Shown: positions 29,679-40,785, counted from the stretch's first letter. The stretch: 64,000 nucleotides of DNA from an uncultured Candidatus Rokubacteria bacterium (GCA_963826115.1 CAWGVS010000005.1:1792001-1856000), one strand, 5' to 3'. Translations and numbers: made by a program. Notes: generated by a model not told the origin, from the letters alone.

Positions 29679-31022
29679 ATGAGCCGTCGAGTGGCCGAGG
29701 ATGTCCTCGACTGCGTGGTCGTCGGAGCCGGCGCGGCGGGGCTGGCGGCGGCGGCGAGCCTCCACGAGGCCGCCCGGACGTTCGTCGTCCTCGAAGCCCG
29801 CGACCGCATCGGCGGGCGAGCCCACACGGTCCGGCTGTCCGGCGGGCAGGCCGCCGAGCGGGGCGGCGAGTACCTCCACGGCGCCCGGGTCGCGACGTGG
29901 GAGTACGTGGCGCGCTTCGGCCTCGCGACGCACCTCGCCAGCGGACCCACGCGCATCGGCGTTCCCGAGTACCGTCGCGGCGAGTGGTGGCCTGCCGGCG
30001 CATCCGACTCCGACCGGGCGCTCCAGGGGCTGGGCGCGGCGCTCGACATCCCCGATGCCGCCGAGGTGAGCCTCCGGGACGCGCTGAGCCGCGCCGGCTT
30101 CTCGGGCGACCGGCTGCGCGCCGCCGAGGGTCGGATGGAGGTCCTTTCGCCGATCGACCCGACGGTCGTCAGCGCGCGCGCGGCGGCGGCGGCCTGGCGC
30201 CTCGTGGCGCCGGAGACCGCCTGCTTCGTCCTGGTCGACGGCTACGGCCAGCTGTGGGACAAGCTGAGCCGCCCGTTCGCGGATCGCATCCTGCTCTCGT
30301 CTCCGGTGACTGCCCTCGACTGGTCCTCGGCGGGCATCACCGCCCACGTCGACGGCGGAACGTTCGCGGGCCGGACCGCCATCCTCACGCTGCCGCTCGG
30401 TGTCCTCCAGTCCGGGGCGATGGCCATTCGACCGGCCCTGCCGGAACGGAAGCGCGCGGCCATCGACGGCCTGCGGAGCGGCGCCATCGTCAAGGTGATC
30501 GCCGAGTTCCGCCGGCCGTTCTGGGAGTCCCGAACCGGCACGGTTCCGAGCTTCCGCGCGCCCGACTCGCCCTTCTTCGCCTTCCGTGTCTCGTTCTGGG
30601 ACCGACCCGGCCCGCCGACCCTGGTCGCGTTCCTCGGCGCCGCGTCGGCGCTCGCCGTCACCGGACACCGGGAGCGCGTCGCTGAGCTCCTCCGCCAGGT
30701 GCTCGGAGAGATGTTCCCGGAGACCGACGTCCGCGAGGAACTGGTGCGCCTCGAGGTGGCCGACTGGCCGGCGGATCCTTGGGCGCGGGGCGCCGTCAGC
30801 GTCGAGCCCGTCGGAGGGGCCCACTTGCGCGCCGACCTGGCCCTGCCCACCCCGCCCCTCTTCTGGGCGGGCGAGGCGACGGCCACCGACGGCGGCGCCG
30901 AGTGCGTGCACGGCGCGCTCACGACCGGGCGGCGGGCCGTGGTGGAGGCGCTGCACCTCGTGCGGCCGGCGTCGGTCACCGATCCGACGAGCCGACTGGA
31001 GTGGGCCCGGTATCGCGACTGA
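29679..31022 (+). CDS. Flavin monoamine oxidase family protein
   Basis: GAGAAG, LEARDRIGGR, W..DPW.RG and FWAGEAT...VHGA motifs. Confidence 0.9.
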   Translation: MSRRVAEDVLDCVVVGAGAAGLAAAASLHEAARTFVVLEARDRIGGRAHTVRLSGGQAAERGGEYLHGARVATWEYVARFGLATHLASGPTRIGVPEYRRGEWWPAGASDSDRALQGLGAALDIPDAAEVSLRDALSRAGFSGDRLRAAEGRMEVLSPIDPTVVSARAAAAAWRLVAPETACFVLVDGYGQLWDKLSRPFADRILLSSPVTALDWSSAGITAHVDGGTFAGRTAILTLPLGVLQSGAMAIRPALPERKRAAIDGLRSGAIVKVIAEFRRPFWESRTGTVPSFRAPDSPFFAFRVSFWDRPGPPTLVAFLGAASALAVTGHRERVAELLRQVLGEMFPETDVREELVRLEVADWPADPWARGAVSVEPVGGAHLRADLALPTPPLFWAGEATATDGGAECVHGALTTGRRAVVEALHLVRPASVTDPTSRLEWARYRD

Positions 31023-31071
31023 GCATCCCGGGGCGCGCGCGGCGTCCCGTGACGCGGGAGGGCTTGAGCGG

Positions 31072-31815
31072 ATGGGCGTGCTCGTGGTGACAGGGGGAAG
31101 CCGCGGCATCGGGGCCGCCATCGCGAAGCTCGCGGCCAAGAAGGGCTACGACGTGTGCGTCAACTACCAGCGCGCGCGAGAGCGTGCGGACGAGGTGGCG
31201 GCCGCCGTGCGCGCCGAGGGGCGGCGGGCCCTCGTGGTCCAGGCCGACATCGCCCGCGAGGACGACATCGTGGCCATGTTCCGCGCGGTGGACCGGGAGC
31301 TCGGTCCGATCGACGCGCTCGTCAACAACGCCGGGATCGACTACGAGCGTCTGGTGGCGGACGTGGAGCTCGCGGGTGTCGAGCGGGTCTTCGACGTCAA
31401 CGTCATCGGCCTGATCCTGTGCTGCCGGGAGGCGGTGCGGCGCATGAGCCGCGATCGCGGGGGCCGCGGGGGGGCCATCGTCAACATCAGCTCGGTGGCG
31501 GCGCGCACCGGGGGCCTGCCCAGGGACGCCGTCTACACTGCCTCCAAGGGGGCGGTCGATGCCTTCACCCGGGGGCTCTCGAACGAGGTCGCCGGCCAGG
31601 GCGTCCGCGTCTGCGCGGTCCGGCCCGGGCTCACCCTCACCGAGATCTTCGAGAGCACGCTCGGCCAGGAAGGCGTCACCGACCTGGCGCGCCGGGCGGT
31701 GCCGATGGGCCGGATCGGTCAGCCCGCGGAGGTCGCGGCGATGGTCCTGTGGCTCTGCTCGCCCGAGGCGAGCTACGTGACGGGCTTCACCTACGACGTG
31801 AGCGGGGGCCGATGA
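31072..31815 (+). CDS. SDR family oxidoreductase
   Basis: TGGSRGIG, NNAG and YTASKG. ATG 31072. Confidence 0.92.
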   Translation: MGVLVVTGGSRGIGAAIAKLAAKKGYDVCVNYQRARERADEVAAAVRAEGRRALVVQADIAREDDIVAMFRAVDRELGPIDALVNNAGIDYERLVADVELAGVERVFDVNVIGLILCCREAVRRMSRDRGGRGGAIVNISSVAARTGGLPRDAVYTASKGAVDAFTRGLSNEVAGQGVRVCAVRPGLTLTEIFESTLGQEGVTDLARRAVPMGRIGQPAEVAAMVLWLCSPEASYVTGFTYDVSGGR

Positions 31816-32219
31816 CCCAGCCCATCCGGGTCCTGATCGCCAAGGTCGGCCTCGACGGGCACGACCGGGGCGCCAAGGTCGTCGCGCGGGCCCTCCGGGA
31901 CGGCGGGATGGACGTGATCTACACCGGCCTCCACCGGACGCCGGAGGAGGTCGTCGCGGCCTGCGTCCAGGAGGACGTGGACGTCCTCGGCGTGAGCATC
32001 CTCTCGGGCGCGCACATGACGCTCCTGCCGCGGATCCTCGACCTGCTCCGCCGGAGCGACGCGAGCGACGTCCTCCTGGTCGCGGGCGGCGTCATCCCCG
32101 ACGAGGACGTGCCCGCCCTCCGGGACGCCGGCGTCGCCGAGCTTTTCCTCCAGGAGACCCCGCCGGCGGCCCTGGTCGCCCGGGTCCGCGAGCTGGTGGA
32201 GGCCGCGCGCGCCGGCTGA
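31812..32219 (+). CDS. hcmB: Cobalamin-binding small subunit of acyl-CoA mutase (HcmB-like)
   Basis: KVGLDGHDRG (DxHxxG), SILSG and GGVIP; adjacent to hcl; ATG overlaps the SDR stop. Confidence 0.8.
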   Translation: MTQPIRVLIAKVGLDGHDRGAKVVARALRDGGMDVIYTGLHRTPEEVVAACVQEDVDVLGVSILSGAHMTLLPRILDLLRRSDASDVLLVAGGVIPDEDVPALRDAGVAELFLQETPPAALVARVRELVEAARAG

Positions 32220-32240
32220 GCGCCGCCGCGCCGAGTCCCC

Positions 32241-33716
32241 GTGTCGCCGATGGACGAGCTCGACCTCGACCGGATCCGCCGGACCCGTGGCGTGGACCTC
32301 ACGGCCTGGCCGCCCCGCTACGATCCGGCGTACCGCCCCCCGCCCGGCGCCGAGTCCTGGCTGCCCGAGGTCGAGTGCGCGCCGCCGGGGGCGCGGGACC
32401 GGCTCGTCCTCTGGAAGCTTCGGGAACAGGTGCGCCACGCCTGGGAGCAGAGCCCCTTCTATCGCCGGAAGTGGGAGGCCGCCGGCGTGTCCCCGGCGAC
32501 GCTCCGGCATCTGGAGGACCTCCAGCGCTTCCCGGTCGTGACGAAGGAGGAGCTCCGCGCCGCCCAGGCGGCCCACCCACCCTTCGGGGACTACCTCTGC
32601 GTCGCGCCGGAGGCGGTCGCCCGCATCCACGGCACCAGCGGCACGACGGGCCGGCCCACCGTGTTCGGCATCGGCGCCGACGACTGGCAGCGGATCGGCG
32701 AGGCGCACGCGCGGATCCTGTGGGCGATCGGCATCCGGCCCGGGGACCGCGTCCTCATCTGCTCGTTCTTCAGCCTCTACATGGGCTCCTGGGGCGTCCT
32801 CGCCGGCGGCGAGCGACTCGGCGCGACGATCTTCCCCTTCGGCGCCGGGGTCCAGGGTCAGACGCTGGCCGCCGTCCAGTGGGCGCGCGAGGTCCGTCCC
32901 GCCGCCTTCTACGGAACGCCGTCCTACGCGCTCCACTTCGCCGAGACGGCGCGGCGCGAGGGCGTCGACCCGCGGGGCCTCGGCTTCCGGATTCTCTTCT
33001 TCTCGGGCGAGCCCGGGGCCGGCATCCCGTCGACCCGGCGGCTCATCGAGGACGCCTTCGGCGGGATCTGCGTCGACACGGGCAGCATGGCGGAGATGAC
33101 GCCCTGGATGACGAACGCCGAGTGCCCCCATCGTACGGGAATGCACCTCTGGCAGGACCTGGTGTACACGGAGGTCTGCGACCCCGGGACCTACCGGCGG
33201 GTGCCGTACGGGAGCGAGGGCACGCCGATCTACACGCACCTCGAGCGCACGTCGCAGCCGATGATCCGCCTGGTCTCCGGAGACCGGACGCGCTGGACGG
33301 ACGAGCCCTGCCCCTGCGGCCGGACCTACCCGCGCCTCCCCGCCGGGATCTACGGCCGCTTCGACGACATGCTCGTCGTGCGCGGCGAGAACGTCTACCC
33401 GAGCGGCATCGAGGACGCGCTCCGCGCGGTGCCGGGCTTCGGCGGCGAGTTCCGCGTGATCGTGTCCCGGCGCGAGGCGATGGACGAGCTCCTGGTGCGC
33501 GCCGAGTACACCCCGGAGCACGAGCCCCCCGATCGCCGCGACGCGCTCCAGCGGGCGATGCGGGACCGGCTGCGCGCGCGGATCGGGATCCACCCGGTGG
33601 TGGAGCTGGTCCCGCAGGGAACGCTCCCGCGCTCGGAGTTCAAGGCCCGGCGCGTCGTGGACGATCGGGACCTGTACCGGCAGACGCTGGCGGAGGAGCG
33701 GAGCCGCCCCCGATGA
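32241..33716 (+). CDS. hcl: 2-hydroxyisobutyrate--CoA ligase (PaaK-like family)
   Basis: AHPPFGDY, HGTSGTTGRPT, SLYMGSWG, AFYGTPSYA, GSMAEM and YTHLERTSQPMIRL match recalled Aquincola HCL motifs. Confidence 0.75.
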   Translation: MSPMDELDLDRIRRTRGVDLTAWPPRYDPAYRPPPGAESWLPEVECAPPGARDRLVLWKLREQVRHAWEQSPFYRRKWEAAGVSPATLRHLEDLQRFPVVTKEELRAAQAAHPPFGDYLCVAPEAVARIHGTSGTTGRPTVFGIGADDWQRIGEAHARILWAIGIRPGDRVLICSFFSLYMGSWGVLAGGERLGATIFPFGAGVQGQTLAAVQWAREVRPAAFYGTPSYALHFAETARREGVDPRGLGFRILFFSGEPGAGIPSTRRLIEDAFGGICVDTGSMAEMTPWMTNAECPHRTGMHLWQDLVYTEVCDPGTYRRVPYGSEGTPIYTHLERTSQPMIRLVSGDRTRWTDEPCPCGRTYPRLPAGIYGRFDDMLVVRGENVYPSGIEDALRAVPGFGGEFRVIVSRREAMDELLVRAEYTPEHEPPDRRDALQRAMRDRLRARIGIHPVVELVPQGTLPRSEFKARRVVDDRDLYRQTLAEERSRPR

Positions 33717-33843
33717 GGCGAGGTCGACCGGGCACGAGCGCGCCCTCGCGTTTCACGCCGGCCGGGTTGCGGGGTCATGCTCTACGAGCCCGCGCGCGAT
33801 CCGACGGTGGCGTGCGGCTGAGACCTTCGCAGGAGGAACATCC

Positions 33844-34377
33844 ATGAGCCCGGCCACCTACTACACGCGAGTCCCGAGCCCCCTCGGACCCTTGCTCCTG
33901 GTCGGCACGACCGACGCGCTCACCGGGATCTGGCTGCCATCCGGCCGGGACCGGATCGACCCCGAGCCCGACTGGATCGAGTCCGCGAAGCCGTTCGCCG
34001 AGGCTGCCCGCCAGTTCGCGGCGTACTTCGCCGGCGCGCTCCGGCGCTTCGACCTCTCCCTCGCGCCCGAGGGCACCCCGTTCCAGCGGCGCGTGTGGCG
34101 GGCGCTCGTGGACATCCCCTACGGCGAGACGATCTCGTACGCCGAGCTCGCCCGCTGGATCGAGCGGCCGTCGGCGGTGCGCGCGGTCGGCGCGGCGAAC
34201 GGACAGAACCCCCTGTCGATCGTGATCCCCTGTCACCGCGTCATCGGGAGCGACGGCCGCCTGGTGGGCTACGGGGGCGGCCTCCCCGCCAAGTCCACGC
34301 TCCTCGCGCTCGAGCGGGGCGGGATCGGCGCGCCGGCCCGGCCGGCCCGCCCCCGGCAGGAAGCGCTCTTCGGCTGA
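33844..34377 (+). CDS. ogt: Methylated-DNA--protein-cysteine methyltransferase
   Basis: GTPFQ..VW, RAVG.ANG.NP and IPCHRVIG motifs. Confidence 0.93.
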   Translation: MSPATYYTRVPSPLGPLLLVGTTDALTGIWLPSGRDRIDPEPDWIESAKPFAEAARQFAAYFAGALRRFDLSLAPEGTPFQRRVWRALVDIPYGETISYAELARWIERPSAVRAVGAANGQNPLSIVIPCHRVIGSDGRLVGYGGGLPAKSTLLALERGGIGAPARPARPRQEALFG

Positions 34378-34467
34378 CCGCAGGGAGCCCGCGAGCCGAT
34401 GCCCGCGCGCCGGTCGGAGCGAGGCGTCCTCCGTCCGTTCATCCACCACGTGCAGCGGGAGGCCTCC

Positions 34468-34869
34468 ATGCATCCGATCGAGATGAAACAGGTCAAGGAG
34501 ATCATCCTCGTGAGCGACGACGTGCAGGCGAGCCGTCGCCTCTACCGCGAGACTCTGGGACTGTCCATGCCGGCGGCGCCCGACCGCCTCAACCTCGCGC
34601 GCGTCGGCTCGTAGTATCTGGGCGTGTCGCAGGCCGGAACGATGGCGCACCCGGGATTCGCGGGGCGGGTGCATCTGGGCTTGGAGATCGCGCCCGGCGA
34701 CTTCGAGCGCGCGGTGGACCATCTGCGCCGCCAAGGCATCCACGTGACCGTTCGCGCCCGGCAGCCGGGATACATGGGCACGCCCCAGGGCGTCGGCGCG
34801 TACTTCCTCGATCCCGACGCGAACCTGATCGAGCTCTGGGCGCCGAGACCCGCTCCCGCCTCCAGCTGA
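34468..34869 (+). pseudogene. VOC/glyoxalase-family gene interrupted by an in-frame TAG (34612-34614)
   Basis: GGGAGG RBS and ATG 34468. V.D...S..LY...LGL precedes the stop; HLGLE and YFLDPDANLIEL follow it in the same frame. Confidence 0.8.
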
Positions 34870-34948
34870 GACGAGGCGAACGGGCTCGGCCCGGGCATCC
34901 CGCGGCCGCCAGCGGAAGATCGGCAAAGTCGCGTAGACTGAGGCCGAA

Positions 34949-36610
34949 ATGACCGGTCAACGCGAGGATATCCGCACGATTGCCCGACAGGTTGTCGAGG
35001 CGATCCGGCTGGCGGGCATCGACACCCTGTTCTGTCTCCCCGGGGTGCAGAACGACGATTTCTTCGACGCCCTGGTCGACGCCAGGGACATCCGTTCCAT
35101 CGTCACCCGCCACGAGCAGGGCGCCGCCTACATGGCGAACGGCGCGGCGCTGGTCGCCGGCAAGCCGGCGGCGTTCTCCGTCGTGCCGGGCCCGGGTCTC
35201 CTGAACGCCGGGGCCGCTCTCACCAGCGGCTACTGGTCCAACGCGCGCGTGCTCGCGATTGTCGGCGAGATCGCCACGGCGGCCCGGGGCCGCGGTTTCG
35301 GCGTGCTGCACGAGCTCCCCGACCAGCATGCCCTCCTCGGCCAGCTCACCAAGCACGCCGAGCTGCTCGACGACAGCGAGTCCGCGACCAAGCGGATCCA
35401 GGCGGCGCTCGACTCGCTCGTCTCGGGCCGCCCGCGACCCGTCAGTCTCGAGATCCCCGTCGACCGGTGGCGCGTGCCGGCGCCCGGCGCGCTGCACCCG
35501 CCGGTCCCGGAGAAGCCGGCGGTCGACCCGCGGGCGATCGAGCGCGCCGCCGACGCGCTGCGCCGGGCCGAGCGGCCCATGATCGTCGTCGGCGGGGGCG
35601 CGCAGGACGCGGGCGAGGCGATCGGCCAACTCGCCGACCGGCTCCAGGCCCCCGTCACCGCCCGGCGCGCGGGGCACGGCGTGATCCCCACGACGCATCC
35701 GATGTTCGCTCATCTCGCCGTCGGCCACGCGCTGTGGAAGACCGCGGACGTGGTCGTCGGCATCGGGACGCGTCTCGAGTGGCCGATCCTCCACTGGGGC
35801 ACCGACCCGTCGATGACCATCGTGAAGATCGACATCGACGTCGAGGAGCTCGACCGTCACGGGCTCGGCGCAATCGGTGTCTGGGGCGACGCCGACGATG
35901 CCGTGCGGGCGCTCTTGGCGGCGCTGGAGGGGATGCCCACCCGGCCGGACCGGTCGGAGGAGCTCGCCCAGCGACGCGCCCGCTATTTCGCCGACATCGA
36001 CCACCTCCGGCCGCAGCTCGACTTCCTGGCCGCGATCCGCGACGTGCTCCCCGACGACGGGATCTTCGTCGAGGACGTCACCCAGATCGGGTTCGCCGCT
36101 CACCTCGCGTTCGAGTTCCGCCGGCCCCGGACGTTTCAGTGCACGGGTCCCGCCGGCACGCTCGGCGCCGGCTACGCGCAGGGAGTCGGGGCGCAGGTCG
36201 CCCTCGACCGGGAAGGCCGCGGCCGGCGGGCGCTGGTGGTCGCGGGCGACGGTGGGTTCCTGTTCACGGGGAACGAGCTCGCGACGGCGGTTCAGCACGG
36301 GATCCCGCTCGTCTGCTGCGTGTTCGACGACGGAGCCTACGGCAACGTCAAGCGGATCCAGGAGCAGCGCTTCGGCGAGGACCGCACGATCGCGTCGACG
36401 CTGCGCAGCCCCGACTTCGTCGCCTACGCCCGCGCGTTCGGCGCGCTGGGCCTCCACGCGACCGGCCCCGCCGAGCTCCGCGCCCGGCTCGACGCGGCGT
36501 TCAACGCCAGCGCTCCGGCGGTGGTCCACGTCTCCACCGGCCCCATGCCCGACCCGTGGCCGTGGTTCCTGCTGGGGCGCGCGCGCGGAGAGCGACCCCG
36601 GCGTTCTTGA
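34949..36610 (+). CDS. Thiamine-diphosphate-dependent enzyme (acetolactate synthase/lyase-like)
   Basis: TRHEQGAAYMA, PGPG and GDGGF...DGAYGN motifs. Confidence 0.92.
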   Translation: MTGQREDIRTIARQVVEAIRLAGIDTLFCLPGVQNDDFFDALVDARDIRSIVTRHEQGAAYMANGAALVAGKPAAFSVVPGPGLLNAGAALTSGYWSNARVLAIVGEIATAARGRGFGVLHELPDQHALLGQLTKHAELLDDSESATKRIQAALDSLVSGRPRPVSLEIPVDRWRVPAPGALHPPVPEKPAVDPRAIERAADALRRAERPMIVVGGGAQDAGEAIGQLADRLQAPVTARRAGHGVIPTTHPMFAHLAVGHALWKTADVVVGIGTRLEWPILHWGTDPSMTIVKIDIDVEELDRHGLGAIGVWGDADDAVRALLAALEGMPTRPDRSEELAQRRARYFADIDHLRPQLDFLAAIRDVLPDDGIFVEDVTQIGFAAHLAFEFRRPRTFQCTGPAGTLGAGYAQGVGAQVALDREGRGRRALVVAGDGGFLFTGNELATAVQHGIPLVCCVFDDGAYGNVKRIQEQRFGEDRTIASTLRSPDFVAYARAFGALGLHATGPAELRARLDAAFNASAPAVVHVSTGPMPDPWPWFLLGRARGERPRRS

Positions 36611-36686
36611 CACATCCGGCGCCCGCCGCGCACGATCAAGATCCGGCGGGGCGCGCGACCGGGACGGCTGACGCGAGGGGGCTTCC

Positions 36687-38369
36687 ATGTACGACCGCGA
36701 GGCGATCGAGCGGATCCGGCGGCTACGGGAGGCCTGGGAGGCCGGCCCCCTGCGCGAGTTCGTCGAGCGTCAGCCCGAGTCACGGCCGGAGTACCGGACG
36801 GCGTCGGGCCTGCCGCGGCAGCGCGTCTACACGCCGGAGGATGTCGCCGGCCTCGAGCCCGAGGATCTCGGGCTGCCCGGACAGTACCCGTTCACGCGCG
36901 GCCCCTACCCCACGATGTACCGGGGCCGGCTCTGGACGATGCGGCAGATCGCCGGCTACGGGACCGGCGCGGACACGAACGCCCGCTTCCGCTACCTGAT
37001 CGCCCAGGGGCAGACCGGGCTGTCCGTCGACTTCGACATGCCGACGCTCATGGGCTACGACTCCGACGACCCGCGTTCGCTCGGGGAGGTCGGACGCGAA
37101 GGGGTCGCCATCGACACGCTGGACGACGTCGCCCAGCTCTTCGAGGGCATCGACCTCGAGCGAATCTCGGTGTCCATGACGATCAACCCGACGGCGTGGA
37201 TCCTCCTCGCCATGTACGTGGCCCTCGCCGAGTCCCGCGGCCTCGATCTCAACCGGCTGTCGGGGACGGTCCAAGCGGACATCCTCAAGGAGTACGTGGC
37301 GCAGAAGGAGTGGATCTTCCCGATCCGGCCGTCCATGCGGCTCATGCGCGACATGATCGTGTTCGCGGCCGAGCGGATGGCCCGCTACAACCCCATCAAC
37401 ATCAGCGGCTACCACATCTCCGAGGCCGGCGCGAACGCCGTCCAGGAGGTGGCCTTCACGATCGCGAACGGGATCGCCTACGTGGAGGAGGTCACGCGCG
37501 CCGGCGTTCCGGTCGACGCGTTCGCGCCCCGCCTGGCCTTCTACTTCATCGCCCAGGCGGACTTCTTCGAGGAGGCCGCGAAGTTCCGGGCCGCCCGCCG
37601 GATCTGGGCGCGCGTCATGCGCGACCGCTTCGGGGCCCAGCGGCCCGAGTCGATGCGCCTCCGCTTCCACTGCCAGACGGCGGCGGCGACCCTCACCAAG
37701 GCGCAGCCGATGGTCAACGTCGTGCGGACCGCCTTCCAGGCCCTGTCCGCGGTGCTCGGCGGCGCCCAGTCCCTCCACACCAACGGGCTCGACGAGGCGT
37801 ACGCGATTCCCTCCGAGGAGGCGATGAAGCTCGCGCTCCGGACCCAGCAGGTCATCGCCGAGGAGACCGGCGTGCCCGAGGTCATCGACCCGCTCGGGGG
37901 CTCCTTCTACGTGGAGGCCCTGACCGCCCGGATCGAGGCCGAGGTCCTCCGCATCCTCCAGAAGGTCGACGCGATGGGCGGCGCGATCCGCGCGATCGAG
38001 GAGGGGTACTTCCAGCGCGAGATCGCCGACAACGCCTACGAGATCGCGCGTCGCAAGGCCTCCGGCGAGCAGCCCGTCATCGGCGTCAACACGCACGTGG
38101 AGGCGTCCGAGCCGCCGCCGACCCCGATCCACCGGGTGGATCCGGCGGTCGAGGCGCGCCAGGTCGCCGCGGTCCAGGCCGTCCGCGCGCGCCGGGACGG
38201 CGGGAGGGTCGCGACCCTGCTGGACCGCCTTGCGGCCGAGGCCCAGGACCCCGGCGTCAACCTCATGCCCACCACGATCGAGCTGGTGAAGGCGCGGGCC
38301 ACGCTGGGCGAGATCGTCGCGCGACTCCGGGACGTCTTCGGTCGCTACGTCGAGCGACCGGTCTTCTGA
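36687..38369 (+). CDS. hcmA: 2-hydroxyisobutyryl-CoA mutase large subunit (B12-dependent)
   Basis: Mutase family with WTMRQIAG (Ile88 in place of MCM Tyr or ICM Phe) and SVDFDMPT (Asp115); TVQADILKEY, SGYHISEAG and RFHCQTAA. Confidence 0.8.
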   Translation: MYDREAIERIRRLREAWEAGPLREFVERQPESRPEYRTASGLPRQRVYTPEDVAGLEPEDLGLPGQYPFTRGPYPTMYRGRLWTMRQIAGYGTGADTNARFRYLIAQGQTGLSVDFDMPTLMGYDSDDPRSLGEVGREGVAIDTLDDVAQLFEGIDLERISVSMTINPTAWILLAMYVALAESRGLDLNRLSGTVQADILKEYVAQKEWIFPIRPSMRLMRDMIVFAAERMARYNPINISGYHISEAGANAVQEVAFTIANGIAYVEEVTRAGVPVDAFAPRLAFYFIAQADFFEEAAKFRAARRIWARVMRDRFGAQRPESMRLRFHCQTAAATLTKAQPMVNVVRTAFQALSAVLGGAQSLHTNGLDEAYAIPSEEAMKLALRTQQVIAEETGVPEVIDPLGGSFYVEALTARIEAEVLRILQKVDAMGGAIRAIEEGYFQREIADNAYEIARRKASGEQPVIGVNTHVEASEPPPTPIHRVDPAVEARQVAAVQAVRARRDGGRVATLLDRLAAEAQDPGVNLMPTTIELVKARATLGEIVARLRDVFGRYVERPVF

Positions 38370-38381
38370 CGGGAGGGTTCG

Positions 38382-38741
38382 ATGAAGCTCCTCATCAAGA
38401 GCGCGTGGGGGTCCGACGATCCGACGAAGGCGGCCTTCCCGTTCCTGCACGCCAACGCGTTCGTCGAGGCCGGCCACGAGGTCCAGATCTTCCTGCTCGG
38501 CGAGGCGGTCTCTCTGCTGCGGACCCCGGTGGCGAACGCGGTGGTCCCGGTCGGCTGGCCGCCGCTCGCCGAGATCCTCGCCAAGACGCGCGCCCACAAG
38601 ATCCCGCTTCACGTCTGAACGGCGTGCTCCCGGGCCCGTGGGGTCCTGGACGCGGATCTGGACGGCAAGAACGCGACGTTCGCCGTGCCCCCGACGCTCG
38701 TCGCCCTCACCGTGTGGGCGGACAAGATCCTGAGCGAGTGA
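38382..38741 (+). CDS. DsrE-family protein, probable selenoprotein (Sec at TGA 38616-38618, UxxC motif)
   Basis: The frame continues past the TGA as ...IPLHV-U-TACSRARG...WADKILSE*, giving 119 aa, a full DsrE length. Confidence 0.85.
38628..38650 (+). promoter_or_regulatory. Bacterial SECIS-like hairpin
   Basis: TCCCGGGCCC-GTG-GGGTCCTGGA: 9 of 10 positions pair (one G-U). The G-starting apical loop lies 19 nt after the UGA. Confidence 0.7.
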
Positions 38742-38763
38742 GCCTCGCGGTCCGCGCGCGGAT

Positions 38764-39231
38764 CTATCGCTCCGTGTCGTGCACCGCCGGGCTCGTCAGG
38801 ATGAGGTGAGTCGCACGGGTCAGCCGATCGATGACCTCGACGCTGACGAGCGCGCCCGCCGCGCACCCCGGGAATAGGTTCGGGTCGCCGATCGTCACCT
38901 GCGCGCGCACCTCGACGCGGTCGAGGCGGCGCTGATTCGGATCCCCGATGAAGTCGGCGTGCACGGCCACCCCAGGCCGGAGCTCGAAGGTGTTGGGATC
39001 TCCGATCGCGACCCCCTGCTCGTCGAAGAACGTCAGGGTCGCCGGACACGCCTTGTCCGGGTCGGGGGGATTCTGCAGGACCGCGTTGATGCGCGCGGTC
39101 TGGGCGGCGTTCACCACGCCGAAGATCGGAAAGTCGTAGACGATGATGGCCTGGGCGGGGCTCGCGCAGGCAAGCGCGGCGAGTGTCAGGCCGAGAACGA
39201 CCAGAGACGGGGAGCGCCGATGATGGCTCAT
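38764..39231 (-). CDS. Hypothetical secreted protein with three IGDPN motifs
   Basis: Signal peptide ending AQA; GAGGAGG RBS; IGDPN three times and NPPDPD once. Confidence 0.75.
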   Translation of the reverse strand: MSHHRRSPSLVVLGLTLAALACASPAQAIIVYDFPIFGVVNAAQTARINAVLQNPPDPDKACPATLTFFDEQGVAIGDPNTFELRPGVAVHADFIGDPNQRRLDRVEVRAQVTIGDPNLFPGCAAGALVSVEVIDRLTRATHLILTSPAVHDTER

Positions 39232-39435
39232 GGGGACCTCCTCGATCGGGCGATCACGAGGATGTTGCGGAGTTACGGTCCCCGCTCCGTCTGACCGGTT
39301 CGCGAACCTCGACCGCGCGGCACGGGAACCAAGACCAGGCTACGTCAGCCCGTCCACGCCGACAACCCGCCCGGGGGCGCGAAGATTACGCGCGAGTGAT
39401 GCCCGGTGCCCTCGACCCTGCCGAGAGCGGCACGA

Positions 39436-40785
39436 CTAGGGACTCGGCCGGGACCCTGCTCCGACGAGAGCCTTCACGGCCATGAGCGCGTCGCGGTAGG
39501 CGGCCGCATCGGAACCGAAGGTCCCGCCCAGGATGATGCACGGGTCGGCGAGGCTGAACGGCTGCCCGCTGTCCCGGCCCACGAGCTGACCCTCCGGACG
39601 CTCCTCCCAGAAGCAGTGGCTGGCATTCTGCTCGCGCGGGTTGTGGCGCGCCGGCCCGCCGCCCGGCCGGTCGAACTGGTGGTAGGCGCCCGCGTATTCG
39701 GTGATCTCCGCGTCGGCGCCCGCCTTGCGGAGCCGCTCCACGTAGGCCCGGCAGAGCGCCACGGGGGCGAGGTCGTCGGCCGCCCCGTGGAAGAGACGGA
39801 TCGGCCGGTCGCTCACCGCCTCGTCGCCCGCGAAGGCGTAGTAGCACGGAGCGTAGAAGGGGATGTGCAGCGCGAACCTGGCGCCGACCGGGCCGTGCAG
39901 GCGCTGGAATCGCGTGATCGCCGAGTAGAGCGCCACGGCGCCGCCCTTCGAGAATCCCATCACGGCGATCCGCGCCGGATCGATCCGGGGGTGCGTCGCC
40001 AGAAGCTCGAGCGCCCGGTAGGCGTCGCCGACCATCGCAAGGCTGCTGAGCTGCGACTGATCCTCGGCGGTCATGGCGATGCTCCGGCCCGTGAAGCTGT
40101 CGAGGACAAACGTCGCGGCGCCGGCCCGAAGGAGCTCCTCGGCCCAGCGGTCTTCGCGAGGGGTTACCCCGCCCGAGCCGTGAACGAGCACGACGGCCGG
40201 GCTCCGCCCGACCTGGCCCGACGGAAGCTCGAGGTCTCCCCAGATCACGCTGGCGGAGGCGGGCCTGATCCCCTGGAGGAACTCGGGGATCGTCGGCGTG
40301 GTGGTCCGGAATCCGATGCGGCCGGTCGGCCCGGCCATCAGTGTCGTGTGGGGCACAGGCGGCGAACAGGCGTCGACGTAGCGCAGGGACGTCGTGCTCG
40401 TGACGGCCTGTCCGTCAGCGAGCACGACTCGCAGCGTGTACCGAAACTCGGTCTGGCCCGGCGACGGCTTCCTCGGCCAGTGGAGGCGCGGACTCTCGAA
40501 TCGGCCCTGGTCGGTGGTGTGACGCTGAAGGTCGTCCCTCGACGGGGTCAAGGGCGAGCGAATCGGTCGCCCCTCGAAGAGCCCCGACAGCTCGATGTCA
40601 TTCACGGCCGCCAGACCCCCGGGAAGCCCCCGGTACGAGAACCCCCACTGGAAGATGTCCCGCAGGCACACCTGCGGCGGATCGAACCGGAACTGCTCGA
40701 GCGCCGGCTGCGCCTCGCCAAGGATCGGAGCGGCCAGGAGGGCGATACCCAGGATGCCCGTGAGAATGAGCCGCGGAGCTCTCAT
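39436..40785 (-). CDS. Secreted dienelactone-hydrolase-family alpha/beta hydrolase with extra N-terminal domain
   Basis: VHGSGG, GFSKGG (nucleophile elbow), HGAADD and YHQFD motifs. Confidence 0.85.
   Translation of the reverse strand: MRAPRLILTGILGIALLAAPILGEAQPALEQFRFDPPQVCLRDIFQWGFSYRGLPGGLAAVNDIELSGLFEGRPIRSPLTPSRDDLQRHTTDQGRFESPRLHWPRKPSPGQTEFRYTLRVVLADGQAVTSTTSLRYVDACSPPVPHTTLMAGPTGRIGFRTTTPTIPEFLQGIRPASASVIWGDLELPSGQVGRSPAVVLVHGSGGVTPREDRWAEELLRAGAATFVLDSFTGRSIAMTAEDQSQLSSLAMVGDAYRALELLATHPRIDPARIAVMGFSKGGAVALYSAITRFQRLHGPVGARFALHIPFYAPCYYAFAGDEAVSDRPIRLFHGAADDLAPVALCRAYVERLRKAGADAEITEYAGAYHQFDRPGGGPARHNPREQNASHCFWEERPEGQLVGRDSGQPFSLADPCIILGGTFGSDAAAYRDALMAVKALVGAGSRPSP

Follow-up and report, generated by a model that had tools for sequence, protein, structure and literature searches.

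A probable selenocysteine-containing DsrE-like protein encoded behind hcmA in an uncultured Candidatus Rokubacteria bacterium

We analyzed a DsrE-like gene located in a 64,000-nucleotide stretch of genomic DNA (hereafter, the window) from an uncultured Candidatus Rokubacteria bacterium. On comparative grounds we consider it highly probable that the read-through product of this gene is a cytoplasmic 119-residue selenoprotein of the DsrE-like family, in which an in-frame UGA is decoded as selenocysteine (Sec) via a downstream hairpin, that the protein has a redox role, and that its position behind hcmA, a candidate gene for the large subunit of 2-hydroxyisobutyryl-CoA mutase, is a local placement. 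In the proposed mechanism, for which the first two steps draw on the comparative evidence described below, the UGA at positions 38616-38618 would be read as Sec, and the hairpin at 38628-38650, located within the coding sequence itself, would recruit SelB carrying Sec-tRNA(Sec). The coordinates of the gene, its regulatory elements and its upstream neighbours are collected in Table 1.

Table 1. Features of the DsrE-like gene and of the hcm-type cluster upstream of it (positions counted from the first letter of the window)
Feature	Position	Strand	Basis
Short-chain dehydrogenase	inside ORF 30586-31815	+	Member of the hcm-type cluster
hcmB-like small subunit, B12-binding (start codon tentative)	31791..32219	+	Pfam B12-binding; 4r3u_C, 179 bits
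2-hydroxyisobutyryl-CoA synthetase-like (PaaK-type) CoA ligase	32241..33716	+	Pfam AMP-binding_C_2; 6hdw_A, 592 bits
Ogt methyltransferase	33844-34377	+	Member of the hcm-type cluster
Thiamine-diphosphate enzyme directly upstream of hcmA	34949..36610	+	Pfam TPP_enzyme_N/M/C
hcmA-like acyl-CoA mutase large subunit, 560 aa, upstream neighbour	36687..38369	+	Pfam MM_CoA_mutase, E 1.4e-210; 4r3u_A
Shine-Dalgarno-like GGGAGGG, 4 nt 5' of the ATG, within the 12-nt gap after the hcmA stop	38371..38377	+	Sequence
Complete CDS, predicted Sec-containing DsrE-like protein, 119 aa	38382..38741	+	Translation with TGA=U; Pfam DsrE
Predicted selenocysteine codon UGA, residue 79	38616..38618	+	Column comparison across relatives
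Cys82 codon, second residue of the UxxC motif	38625..38627	+	Invariant in the 18-homologue database alignment; present in 24/24 translations
Putative bacterial SECIS hairpin with an upper stem of 6 bp, a C/U mismatch, a lower stem of 3 bp and the loop GUG at 38638-38640	38628..38650	+	Folding, covariation

Reading frame and conservation of the in-frame TGA codon

As read from the sequence, the first open reading frame extends over 78 amino acids on the plus strand, from the ATG at 38382 to the TGA at 38616-38618, and the same frame remains open beyond this codon (TACSRARGVLDADL...WADKILSE) until the closing TGA at 38739-38741. Both points had been made in the initial annotation, which was prepared from the sequence alone and proposed a hidden selenoprotein at this place, and both were reproduced by translation. 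With TGA read as U, the product has 119 amino acids (M1...U79-T-A-C82...E119) and contains the motif H-V-U-T-A-C-S-R-A-R-G-V. The Pfam DsrE model (PF02635) matches the read-through product with an E-value of 3.7e-11 and 43.6 bits (cut-off 22.7) over residues 13-117, spanning the TGA; a translation ending after 78 residues leaves the domain without its last third. Altogether, the read-through protein has 6650 database homologues, and the 120 listed among them are 116-153 amino acids long and about 66-73% identical to it. By inspection of the alignment, no signal peptide is apparent in the Sec-DsrE protein, and the Sec forms begin straight at M-K-L-L-I-K-S-A-W-G. The Cys forms of the family, mostly labelled Verrucomicrobiota (L108-L127, P0007-P0111), carry a 30-residue N-terminal extension with R-R-S-F-L that resembles a Tat signal. 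A scan of positions 34500-39600 for promoters returned no promoter-like site, and a terminator scan of the same region returned a single terminator-like site, on the minus strand (39352-39336), which is not above shuffles.

The automatic calls end this gene at 78 amino acids, and its annotation should be corrected to 119 amino acids with Sec79. The same calling error is spread through the family at large. The first 78 residues match 4120 database proteins (E <= 1e-10). Among the best 120 of these, 111 have a length of 78-79 amino acids and carry the name 'predicted peroxiredoxin' or 'hypothetical protein'.

We searched 41 related genomes (the window's own genome included) with the DsrE-like query and obtained 37 match rows, with a match in 27 of the 41 genomes. 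The codon-level analysis was carried out on 24 of the 37 rows, namely those with loci and near-full coverage. The other 13 rows (partial matches, or E >= 2.7e-22) were left out; among them are a full-length match in genome G012 (43% identical, one TGA) and seven weak matches that lack a TGA. A weak match in genome G038 (E 1e-5, no TGA) was counted only in the tally of 27 genomes. All 24 loci examined contain exactly one TGA, in the same column. They fall into two clades: 14 orthologues that are 71-94% identical and share the motif V-U-[TG]-A-C-S-R-A-R-G-V, and ten loci that are 44-50% identical with the motif V-U-G-[RK]-C-S-[VG]-A-R-G-V. In the window's own genome the protein matches only itself, and the query found no second copy there.

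A wider scan, covering one genome per species, found 412 relatives and extended this observation. At the Sec column, the best 80 loci read TGA in 66 cases, TGC in 12 and TGT in two, so that the TGA form exceeds the Cys form by 66 to 14. The loci come from genomes labelled Methylomirabilota, Alphaproteobacteria, Acidobacteriota, Chloroflexota, Binatia and others. The Sec-DsrE family thus seems to be a selenoprotein widespread among soil bacteria. Two of the Sec-DsrE loci, 82% (L055) and 71% (L111) identical, are found in metagenome-assembled genomes labelled Nitrosotalea and Nitrosocosmicus, i.e. archaea. Since the bacterial-type SECIS lies in the coding sequence of these loci, they seem to be mis-binned bacterial contigs.

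Cys occupies the Sec column in 15 of 18 database homologues that were chosen for alignment out of the 120 listed. The initial annotation had named Cys or TGA at this column as the expected alternatives and a Trp or other non-Cys residue as evidence against Sec; the first expectation was borne out by both datasets, and the exceptions are P0003, P0004 and P0005, which have W, L and R, respectively, and are the closest database proteins of full length. Each of these three residues has a codon one base away from TGA. P0003 has the sequence context NI-W-TACSRARAV, identical to that of the alphaproteobacterial loci with TGA (LNI[TGA]TACSRARAV), and its W probably stands for a TGA read with a different translation table. 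The three proteins may also include a non-redox variant.

Over 67 Sec-form sequences the mean pN/pS came to 0.26 before the TGA (codons 2-78) and to 0.32 after it (codons 80-119), and all 67 are free of stops within codons 80-119. By these measures we read the codons downstream of the TGA as translated and under purifying selection. The base call itself was compared with public sequencing runs, 20 of the 22 listed containing part of the stretch and contigs from four being compared. Two contigs span positions 38616-38618 without a difference and support the base call: record 7 of run X1 (38476-38631, 0 differences) and record 14 of run X3 (38562-38710). X1 is possibly the source sample, and the independent assemblies are the stronger argument for the base call. 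One low-depth X3 contig has an extra T after 38678, a frame-shifting difference that is probably a contig error or comes from another strain. Contigs of the RNA run X15 cover only 38300-38360 and 38712-38800, with three and eight differences, and leave the gene body uncovered.

Hairpin and selenocysteine machinery

The hairpin downstream of the UGA (UCC-C-GGGCCC / GUG / GGGUCC-U-GGA) was compared with the published bSECIS criteria. The Fig. 2 legend of one review gives these as a loop of 3-9 nt on an upper stem of 4-16 bp, G among the first two bases of the loop, a distance of 16-37 nt from the UGA to the apical loop, and a minimum free energy of -7.5 kcal/mol or lower (PMC13188914). The hairpin lies within all four, with a 3-nt loop on a 6-bp stem, G as the first base of the loop, a spacing of 19 nt (38619-38637) and a fold energy of -13.9 kcal/mol. 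On the single sequence it is unremarkable for a genome of 72% GC (26 of 200 shuffles fold as well, and z = -0.49 for a 71-nt stretch), and it is the comparison across genomes that lifts it above chance. An Rfam search of 38300-38900 at E <= 10 returned only chance-level miRNA and snoRNA matches and no SECIS family.

In the 24 relatives, 89.6% of the cells are paired, changes on both sides are seen at four of the ten pairs, and none of 500 shuffles reaches the covariation score; sliding the register reduces pairing to 28-69%. The larger set, consisting of the window and 66 Sec loci, gave 85.2% paired cells and compensatory changes at five of ten pairs, again with no shuffle out of 500 reaching the score. 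Hairpin conservation is partly forced by the invariant A-R-G-V peptide. At pair 33-39, C-G is replaced by U-A in 13 rows through the synonymous changes GCC>GCU and GGG>GGA, and at pair 29-43 the change from G-C to U-A alters both amino acids. The 14 Cys forms, which have the same S-R-A-R-G-V with free codon choice, are only 52.3% paired, a level that 223 of 500 shuffles match. We conclude from the alignments that the hairpin acts as an RNA structure only where the TGA is present. The paired Sec and Cys forms constitute a clean natural control for SECIS evolution within a coding sequence.

At the first loop base (column 35), the 24-row alignment has G throughout; the larger set of 67 rows has G in 66, with an A in L057. 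The ten clade-2 loci (L032-L038, L045-L047) keep the hairpin register unchanged, but their 9-bp stem is fully paired. In the alphaproteobacterial rows the closing pair 34-38 is lost (16 rows unpaired), and in our own reading these rows would fit a 5-nt loop CGUGC with G in the second position. The GC-rich hairpin with a G-first loop 19 nt after the UGA had been called SECIS-like in the initial annotation; in view of its geometry and covariation we regard it as the SECIS of this gene and a putative SelB target.

The remaining components of Sec decoding, which had been suggested as a genome-wide check (selA, selB, selC and selD), are all present. A tRNA-Sec was identified by Aragorn on contig C8 (85942-86039), with a length of 98 nt, the anticodon UCA, an 8-bp acceptor stem and a long extra arm. 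It is adjoined on the same contig by selA (576 bits) and selB (348 bits), both above their cut-offs. The selD gene (393 bits), found at C5:561687-562604 outside the window, itself contains one in-frame TGA in the context G-A-G-U-A-C-K-L. Its SECIS-like hairpin, GGGCCAGA-GGA-UCUGGCCC, has a loop that starts 20 nt after the UGA of selD, a geometry like that of the DsrE-like gene with its 19 nt. Aragorn also reported a 73-nt 'tRNA-Pyl (cta)' on the minus strand of contig C12 (686301-686373). With mismatches in its D and anticodon stems, it looks like a false call and not like an amber suppressor.

Taken together with the codon column and the selection on the downstream codons, the hairpin and the Sec machinery bear out the original proposal of a selenoprotein, and they weigh on two other readings of the TGA. 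That the TGA is a true stop, produced by nonsense mutation or through faulty assembly and leaving a pseudogene or a 78-residue fragment, agrees with the gene callers, as 111 of the 120 best database matches to the first 78 residues are 78-79 amino acids long. We consider it very improbable, since the same TGA occurs in independent assemblies (24/24 and 66/80), purifying selection acts on the 40 codons that follow, none of which is a stop in any of the 67 sequences, the X1 and X3 contigs span the codon unchanged (X1 possibly being the source sample), and a stop at this point would cost the domain its last third. Decoding of the UGA as Trp or Gly by a deviant code is less probable still, and close to negligible. 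It could be argued from the W at the Sec column of P0003, a close database homologue, but this W is most simply a translated TGA, as the identity of its context with the alphaproteobacterial TGA loci suggests. Furthermore, hcmA, which ends 12 nt upstream, and the DsrE-like gene itself both terminate at TGA, homologues have Cys rather than Trp or Gly at the column, and the Sec machinery is complete and accompanied by a covarying SECIS.

Relationship to known DsrE-like proteins and possible function

Sec79 aligns with the single Cys of DsrE (2hy5_A, V-V-C-V-A-A-A-Q-R-R-G) and of TusD (2d1p_A); in YchN (1jx7_A) its counterpart is the first Cys of the C-K-T-C motif. These alignments, with E-values of 0.17-0.47, are individually non-significant and mutually consistent, and they served for alignment of the motif and not for assignment of membership; solved structures, searched with a profile as well as with the single sequence, gave E-values of 0.17-0.94 only. 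The claim that the TGA sits where DsrE proteins carry their redox or sulfur-carrier Cys agrees with these alignments, within their weak E-values, and with the Cys found in homologues. We take the aligned Cys of DsrE and TusD to be a persulfide carrier.

Sec79 and Cys82 (U-T-A-C) would form a redox pair at the place where DsrE and TusD carry the sulfur-binding cysteine. Because of this position, the motif suggests that the protein acts as a small selenol/thiol oxidoreductase or as a sulfane-sulfur carrier. In such a reaction, Sec79 would attack a persulfide, polysulfide, sulfane-sulfur or oxidised substrate, Cys82 would resolve the resulting Se-S bond (a selenenyl-sulfide), and a cellular reductant would recycle the pair.

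The DsrE subunit of DsrEFH and the TusD subunit of TusBCD belong to the same domain family as the window's protein; Sec79 falls on their single Cys (C-V-A-A-x-x-R-R-G), and the R-G is common to all. However, DsrE and TusD carry Ala where the window's protein has Cys82, and the TusBCD and DsrEFH systems encode partners, whereas no DsrF or TusB/TusC-like partner, nor any second DsrE-family gene, was seen among the neighbours scanned beside the Sec-DsrE gene. An assignment as TusD/DsrE equivalog was rejected, as the NCBIfam TusD models scored only about 22 bits against cut-offs of 89-92 (TIGR03012, 22.5 bits, cut-off 89.25; NF001237, 22.1 bits, cut-off 92). E. coli YchN (1jx7), a single-domain DsrE-fold protein of about 117 amino acids, places C-K-T-C on U-T-A-C followed by R-G, as in the window's protein; in contrast, it has Cys and not Sec, aligns with E-values of 0.39-0.47, and the N-terminal motifs SAWGSDDPT and PVGWPP of the window's family are not evident in it.

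DsrE-like selenoproteins as such have been reported before, as the initial annotation had stated. The family (Pfam02635, UXXC) with a predicted SECIS is in the selenoproteome tables of the Sargasso Sea from 2005 (PMC1088965, the tables), and a DsrE-like selenoprotein is listed for Desulfovibrio vulgaris (PMC1794560). The family also appears in the tables of two reviews, and the functions of such families are described there as largely uncharacterised (PMC9312934, PMC13188914, excerpts). UxxC DsrE-like selenoproteins have therefore been known since 2005, and the gene in the window adds a member. According to these sources, the published proteins are alike in Pfam family, UxxC motif, Cys homologues at the Sec column and a downstream SECIS with a G in the loop; the examples (the Desulfovibrio vulgaris protein, WP_014524487.1 and two marine sequences) are likened here by description. 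The window's clade occurs in Methylomirabilota and many other soil phyla, as the genomes are labelled. In a literature search for 'Rokubacteria' together with 'selenocysteine', neither term was in any title or abstract of the papers naming both.

A different role, as a peroxide-reducing enzyme or in the handling of selenium like the CGXC-containing DsrE-like domain of YedF, instead of a sulfur carrier or reductase, is in our estimate a rather unlikely but serious candidate. The sources name relatives of the protein 'predicted peroxiredoxin' (a JGI label), one ortholog (L028) adjoins a 1-Cys peroxiredoxin gene, and the Cys forms read C-G-A-C, i.e. the CGXC pattern given for YedF in an excerpt of PMC5322559. 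On the other hand, 'predicted peroxiredoxin' is an automatic label, the NCBIfam search returned no YedF or peroxiredoxin match at E <= 0.1 and only the TusD matches at 22 bits, far under the cut-off, and another ortholog (L026) adjoins a fusion of metallo-beta-lactamase and rhodanese, which points to sulfur. At the level of sequence, the present data would fit a sulfur, a peroxidase and a selenium-handling role alike.

The hcmA neighbourhood

The gene upstream of the Sec-DsrE gene looks like a good HcmA candidate. The best solved relative of its product is the large subunit of 2-hydroxyisobutyryl-CoA mutase (4r3u_A, 807.6 bits), and MCM and IcmF score at most 439 bits; its earlier identification as hcmA was thus sustained against methylmalonyl-CoA mutase. 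It closes an hcm-type cluster on the plus strand (31100-38369 of the window) that comprises genes for a dehydrogenase, an HcmB-like protein, the synthetase-like ligase, Ogt, the thiamine-diphosphate enzyme and the HcmA-like protein. For comparison we used the 2-hydroxyisobutyryl-CoA mutase cluster of Aquincola tertiaricarbonis, which we take to consist of hcmA, hcmB, hcl and meaH. Close relatives of HcmA, HcmB and the 2-hydroxyisobutyryl-CoA synthetase are also present in the window. The window differs in that MeaB/MeaH is missing and the thiamine-diphosphate enzyme and Ogt are interposed, and a selenoprotein gene behind hcmA is found in the window's sublineage only. A search with PF03308 confirmed that the window has no MeaB family gene, as had been noted; the only match in the genome lies at C5:1090548-1091348, and the window starts at C5:1792001.

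The DsrE-like gene indeed begins 12 nt after the hcmA stop (38369 to 38382), and this gap together with the Shine-Dalgarno-like motif suggests that the two genes are probably co-transcribed. Beyond close kin, however, the arrangement is not conserved. With 1.5-kb flanks, hcmA is directly upstream in seven of the 14 orthologous loci, all from one genus and with proteins at least 88% identical to that of the window, and in none of the ten clade-2 loci. With 3-kb flanks, hcmA is near five of the 66 Sec loci found among the best 80 loci of the species genomes, all of them again the close kin already named; within these flanks, 60 of the 66 Sec loci across phyla lack it. In three species of the same genus (G003, G004 and G005), a 91%-identical hcmA is located far from the Sec-DsrE gene and is followed by a convergent gene instead. 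Other orthologues have as neighbours genes for a cytochrome c, MFS transporters, a HAD hydrolase, the metallo-beta-lactamase/rhodanese fusion, an ABC ATPase, a 2-hydroxyacid dehydrogenase, the 1-Cys peroxiredoxin and a GNAT protein. No neighbour is conserved across the 80 loci; the commonest one by the Sec forms, an ABC substrate-binding protein, occurs at seven of 66, and the neighbourhoods point to no one function. The Cys forms share tRNA synthetase, MlaD and ABC neighbours, which is due to their close kinship only.

One locus (L101), in a metagenome-assembled genome of Eremiobacterota, has a mutase-like gene that is 47-66% identical to HcmA of the window. It is encoded on the opposite, minus strand (L101:1116-2381), some 0.6 kb upstream of Sec-DsrE, and is split over several frames, which makes it either a pseudogene or a product of assembly indels.

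As the adjacency is shallow and restricted to kin, we propose that the DsrE-like gene landed behind hcmA once and recently, as a local accident of one lineage that would give no indication of a shared function, even if the two genes are now probably co-transcribed. The initial annotation had suggested a functional coupling to the B12 mutase, and this part of it is not supported by the synteny (7/14 and 5/66, and unlinked genes in G003-G005). In its full form, the suggestion is that Sec-DsrE serves 2-hydroxyisobutyryl-CoA mutase as a dedicated redox helper, protecting or reactivating B12 and substituting for MeaB/MeaH. The presumed co-transcription across the 12-nt gap with its Shine-Dalgarno-like motif, the retention of the hcmA-DsrE arrangement in seven genomes of the genus, the occurrence of MeaB in the genome (one copy) but not in the window, and the oppositely oriented mutase-like gene at 0.6 kb in the Eremiobacterota locus speak for it. 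Nevertheless, hcmA is missing from seven of 14 orthologous, ten of ten clade-2 and 60 of 66 cross-phyla Sec loci, the 91%-identical hcmA of G003, G004 and G005 has no DsrE gene behind it, and the mutase-like gene of L101 is broken across frames; one such case in about 61 loci is, by our rough estimate, close to chance expectation. In addition, a literature search found no paper naming both '2-hydroxyisobutyryl-CoA mutase' and 'DsrE'. We therefore regard a dedicated helper as improbable, and the same low probability attaches to the narrower version in which, within a single sublineage of the Methylomirabilota genus concerned, the hcm operon took up the Sec-DsrE gene because the selenol/thiol pair of its product serves the B12 mutase. 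If true, the B12 cofactor might be kept reduced or be repaired in a cluster without the MeaH chaperone, and a radical B12 enzyme would have a selenoprotein accessory factor. With a local placement as the preferred reading, the finding opens no new link between selenium and B12 chemistry.

The solved relatives of the cluster's thiamine-diphosphate enzyme score 148-171 bits and comprise acetolactate synthase, oxalyl-CoA decarboxylase and 2-hydroxyacyl-CoA lyase. Because it is about equally related to these three enzyme classes, 2-hydroxyacyl-CoA lyases among them, a lyase and a mutase route for 2-hydroxyisobutyrate might lie side by side in this cluster.
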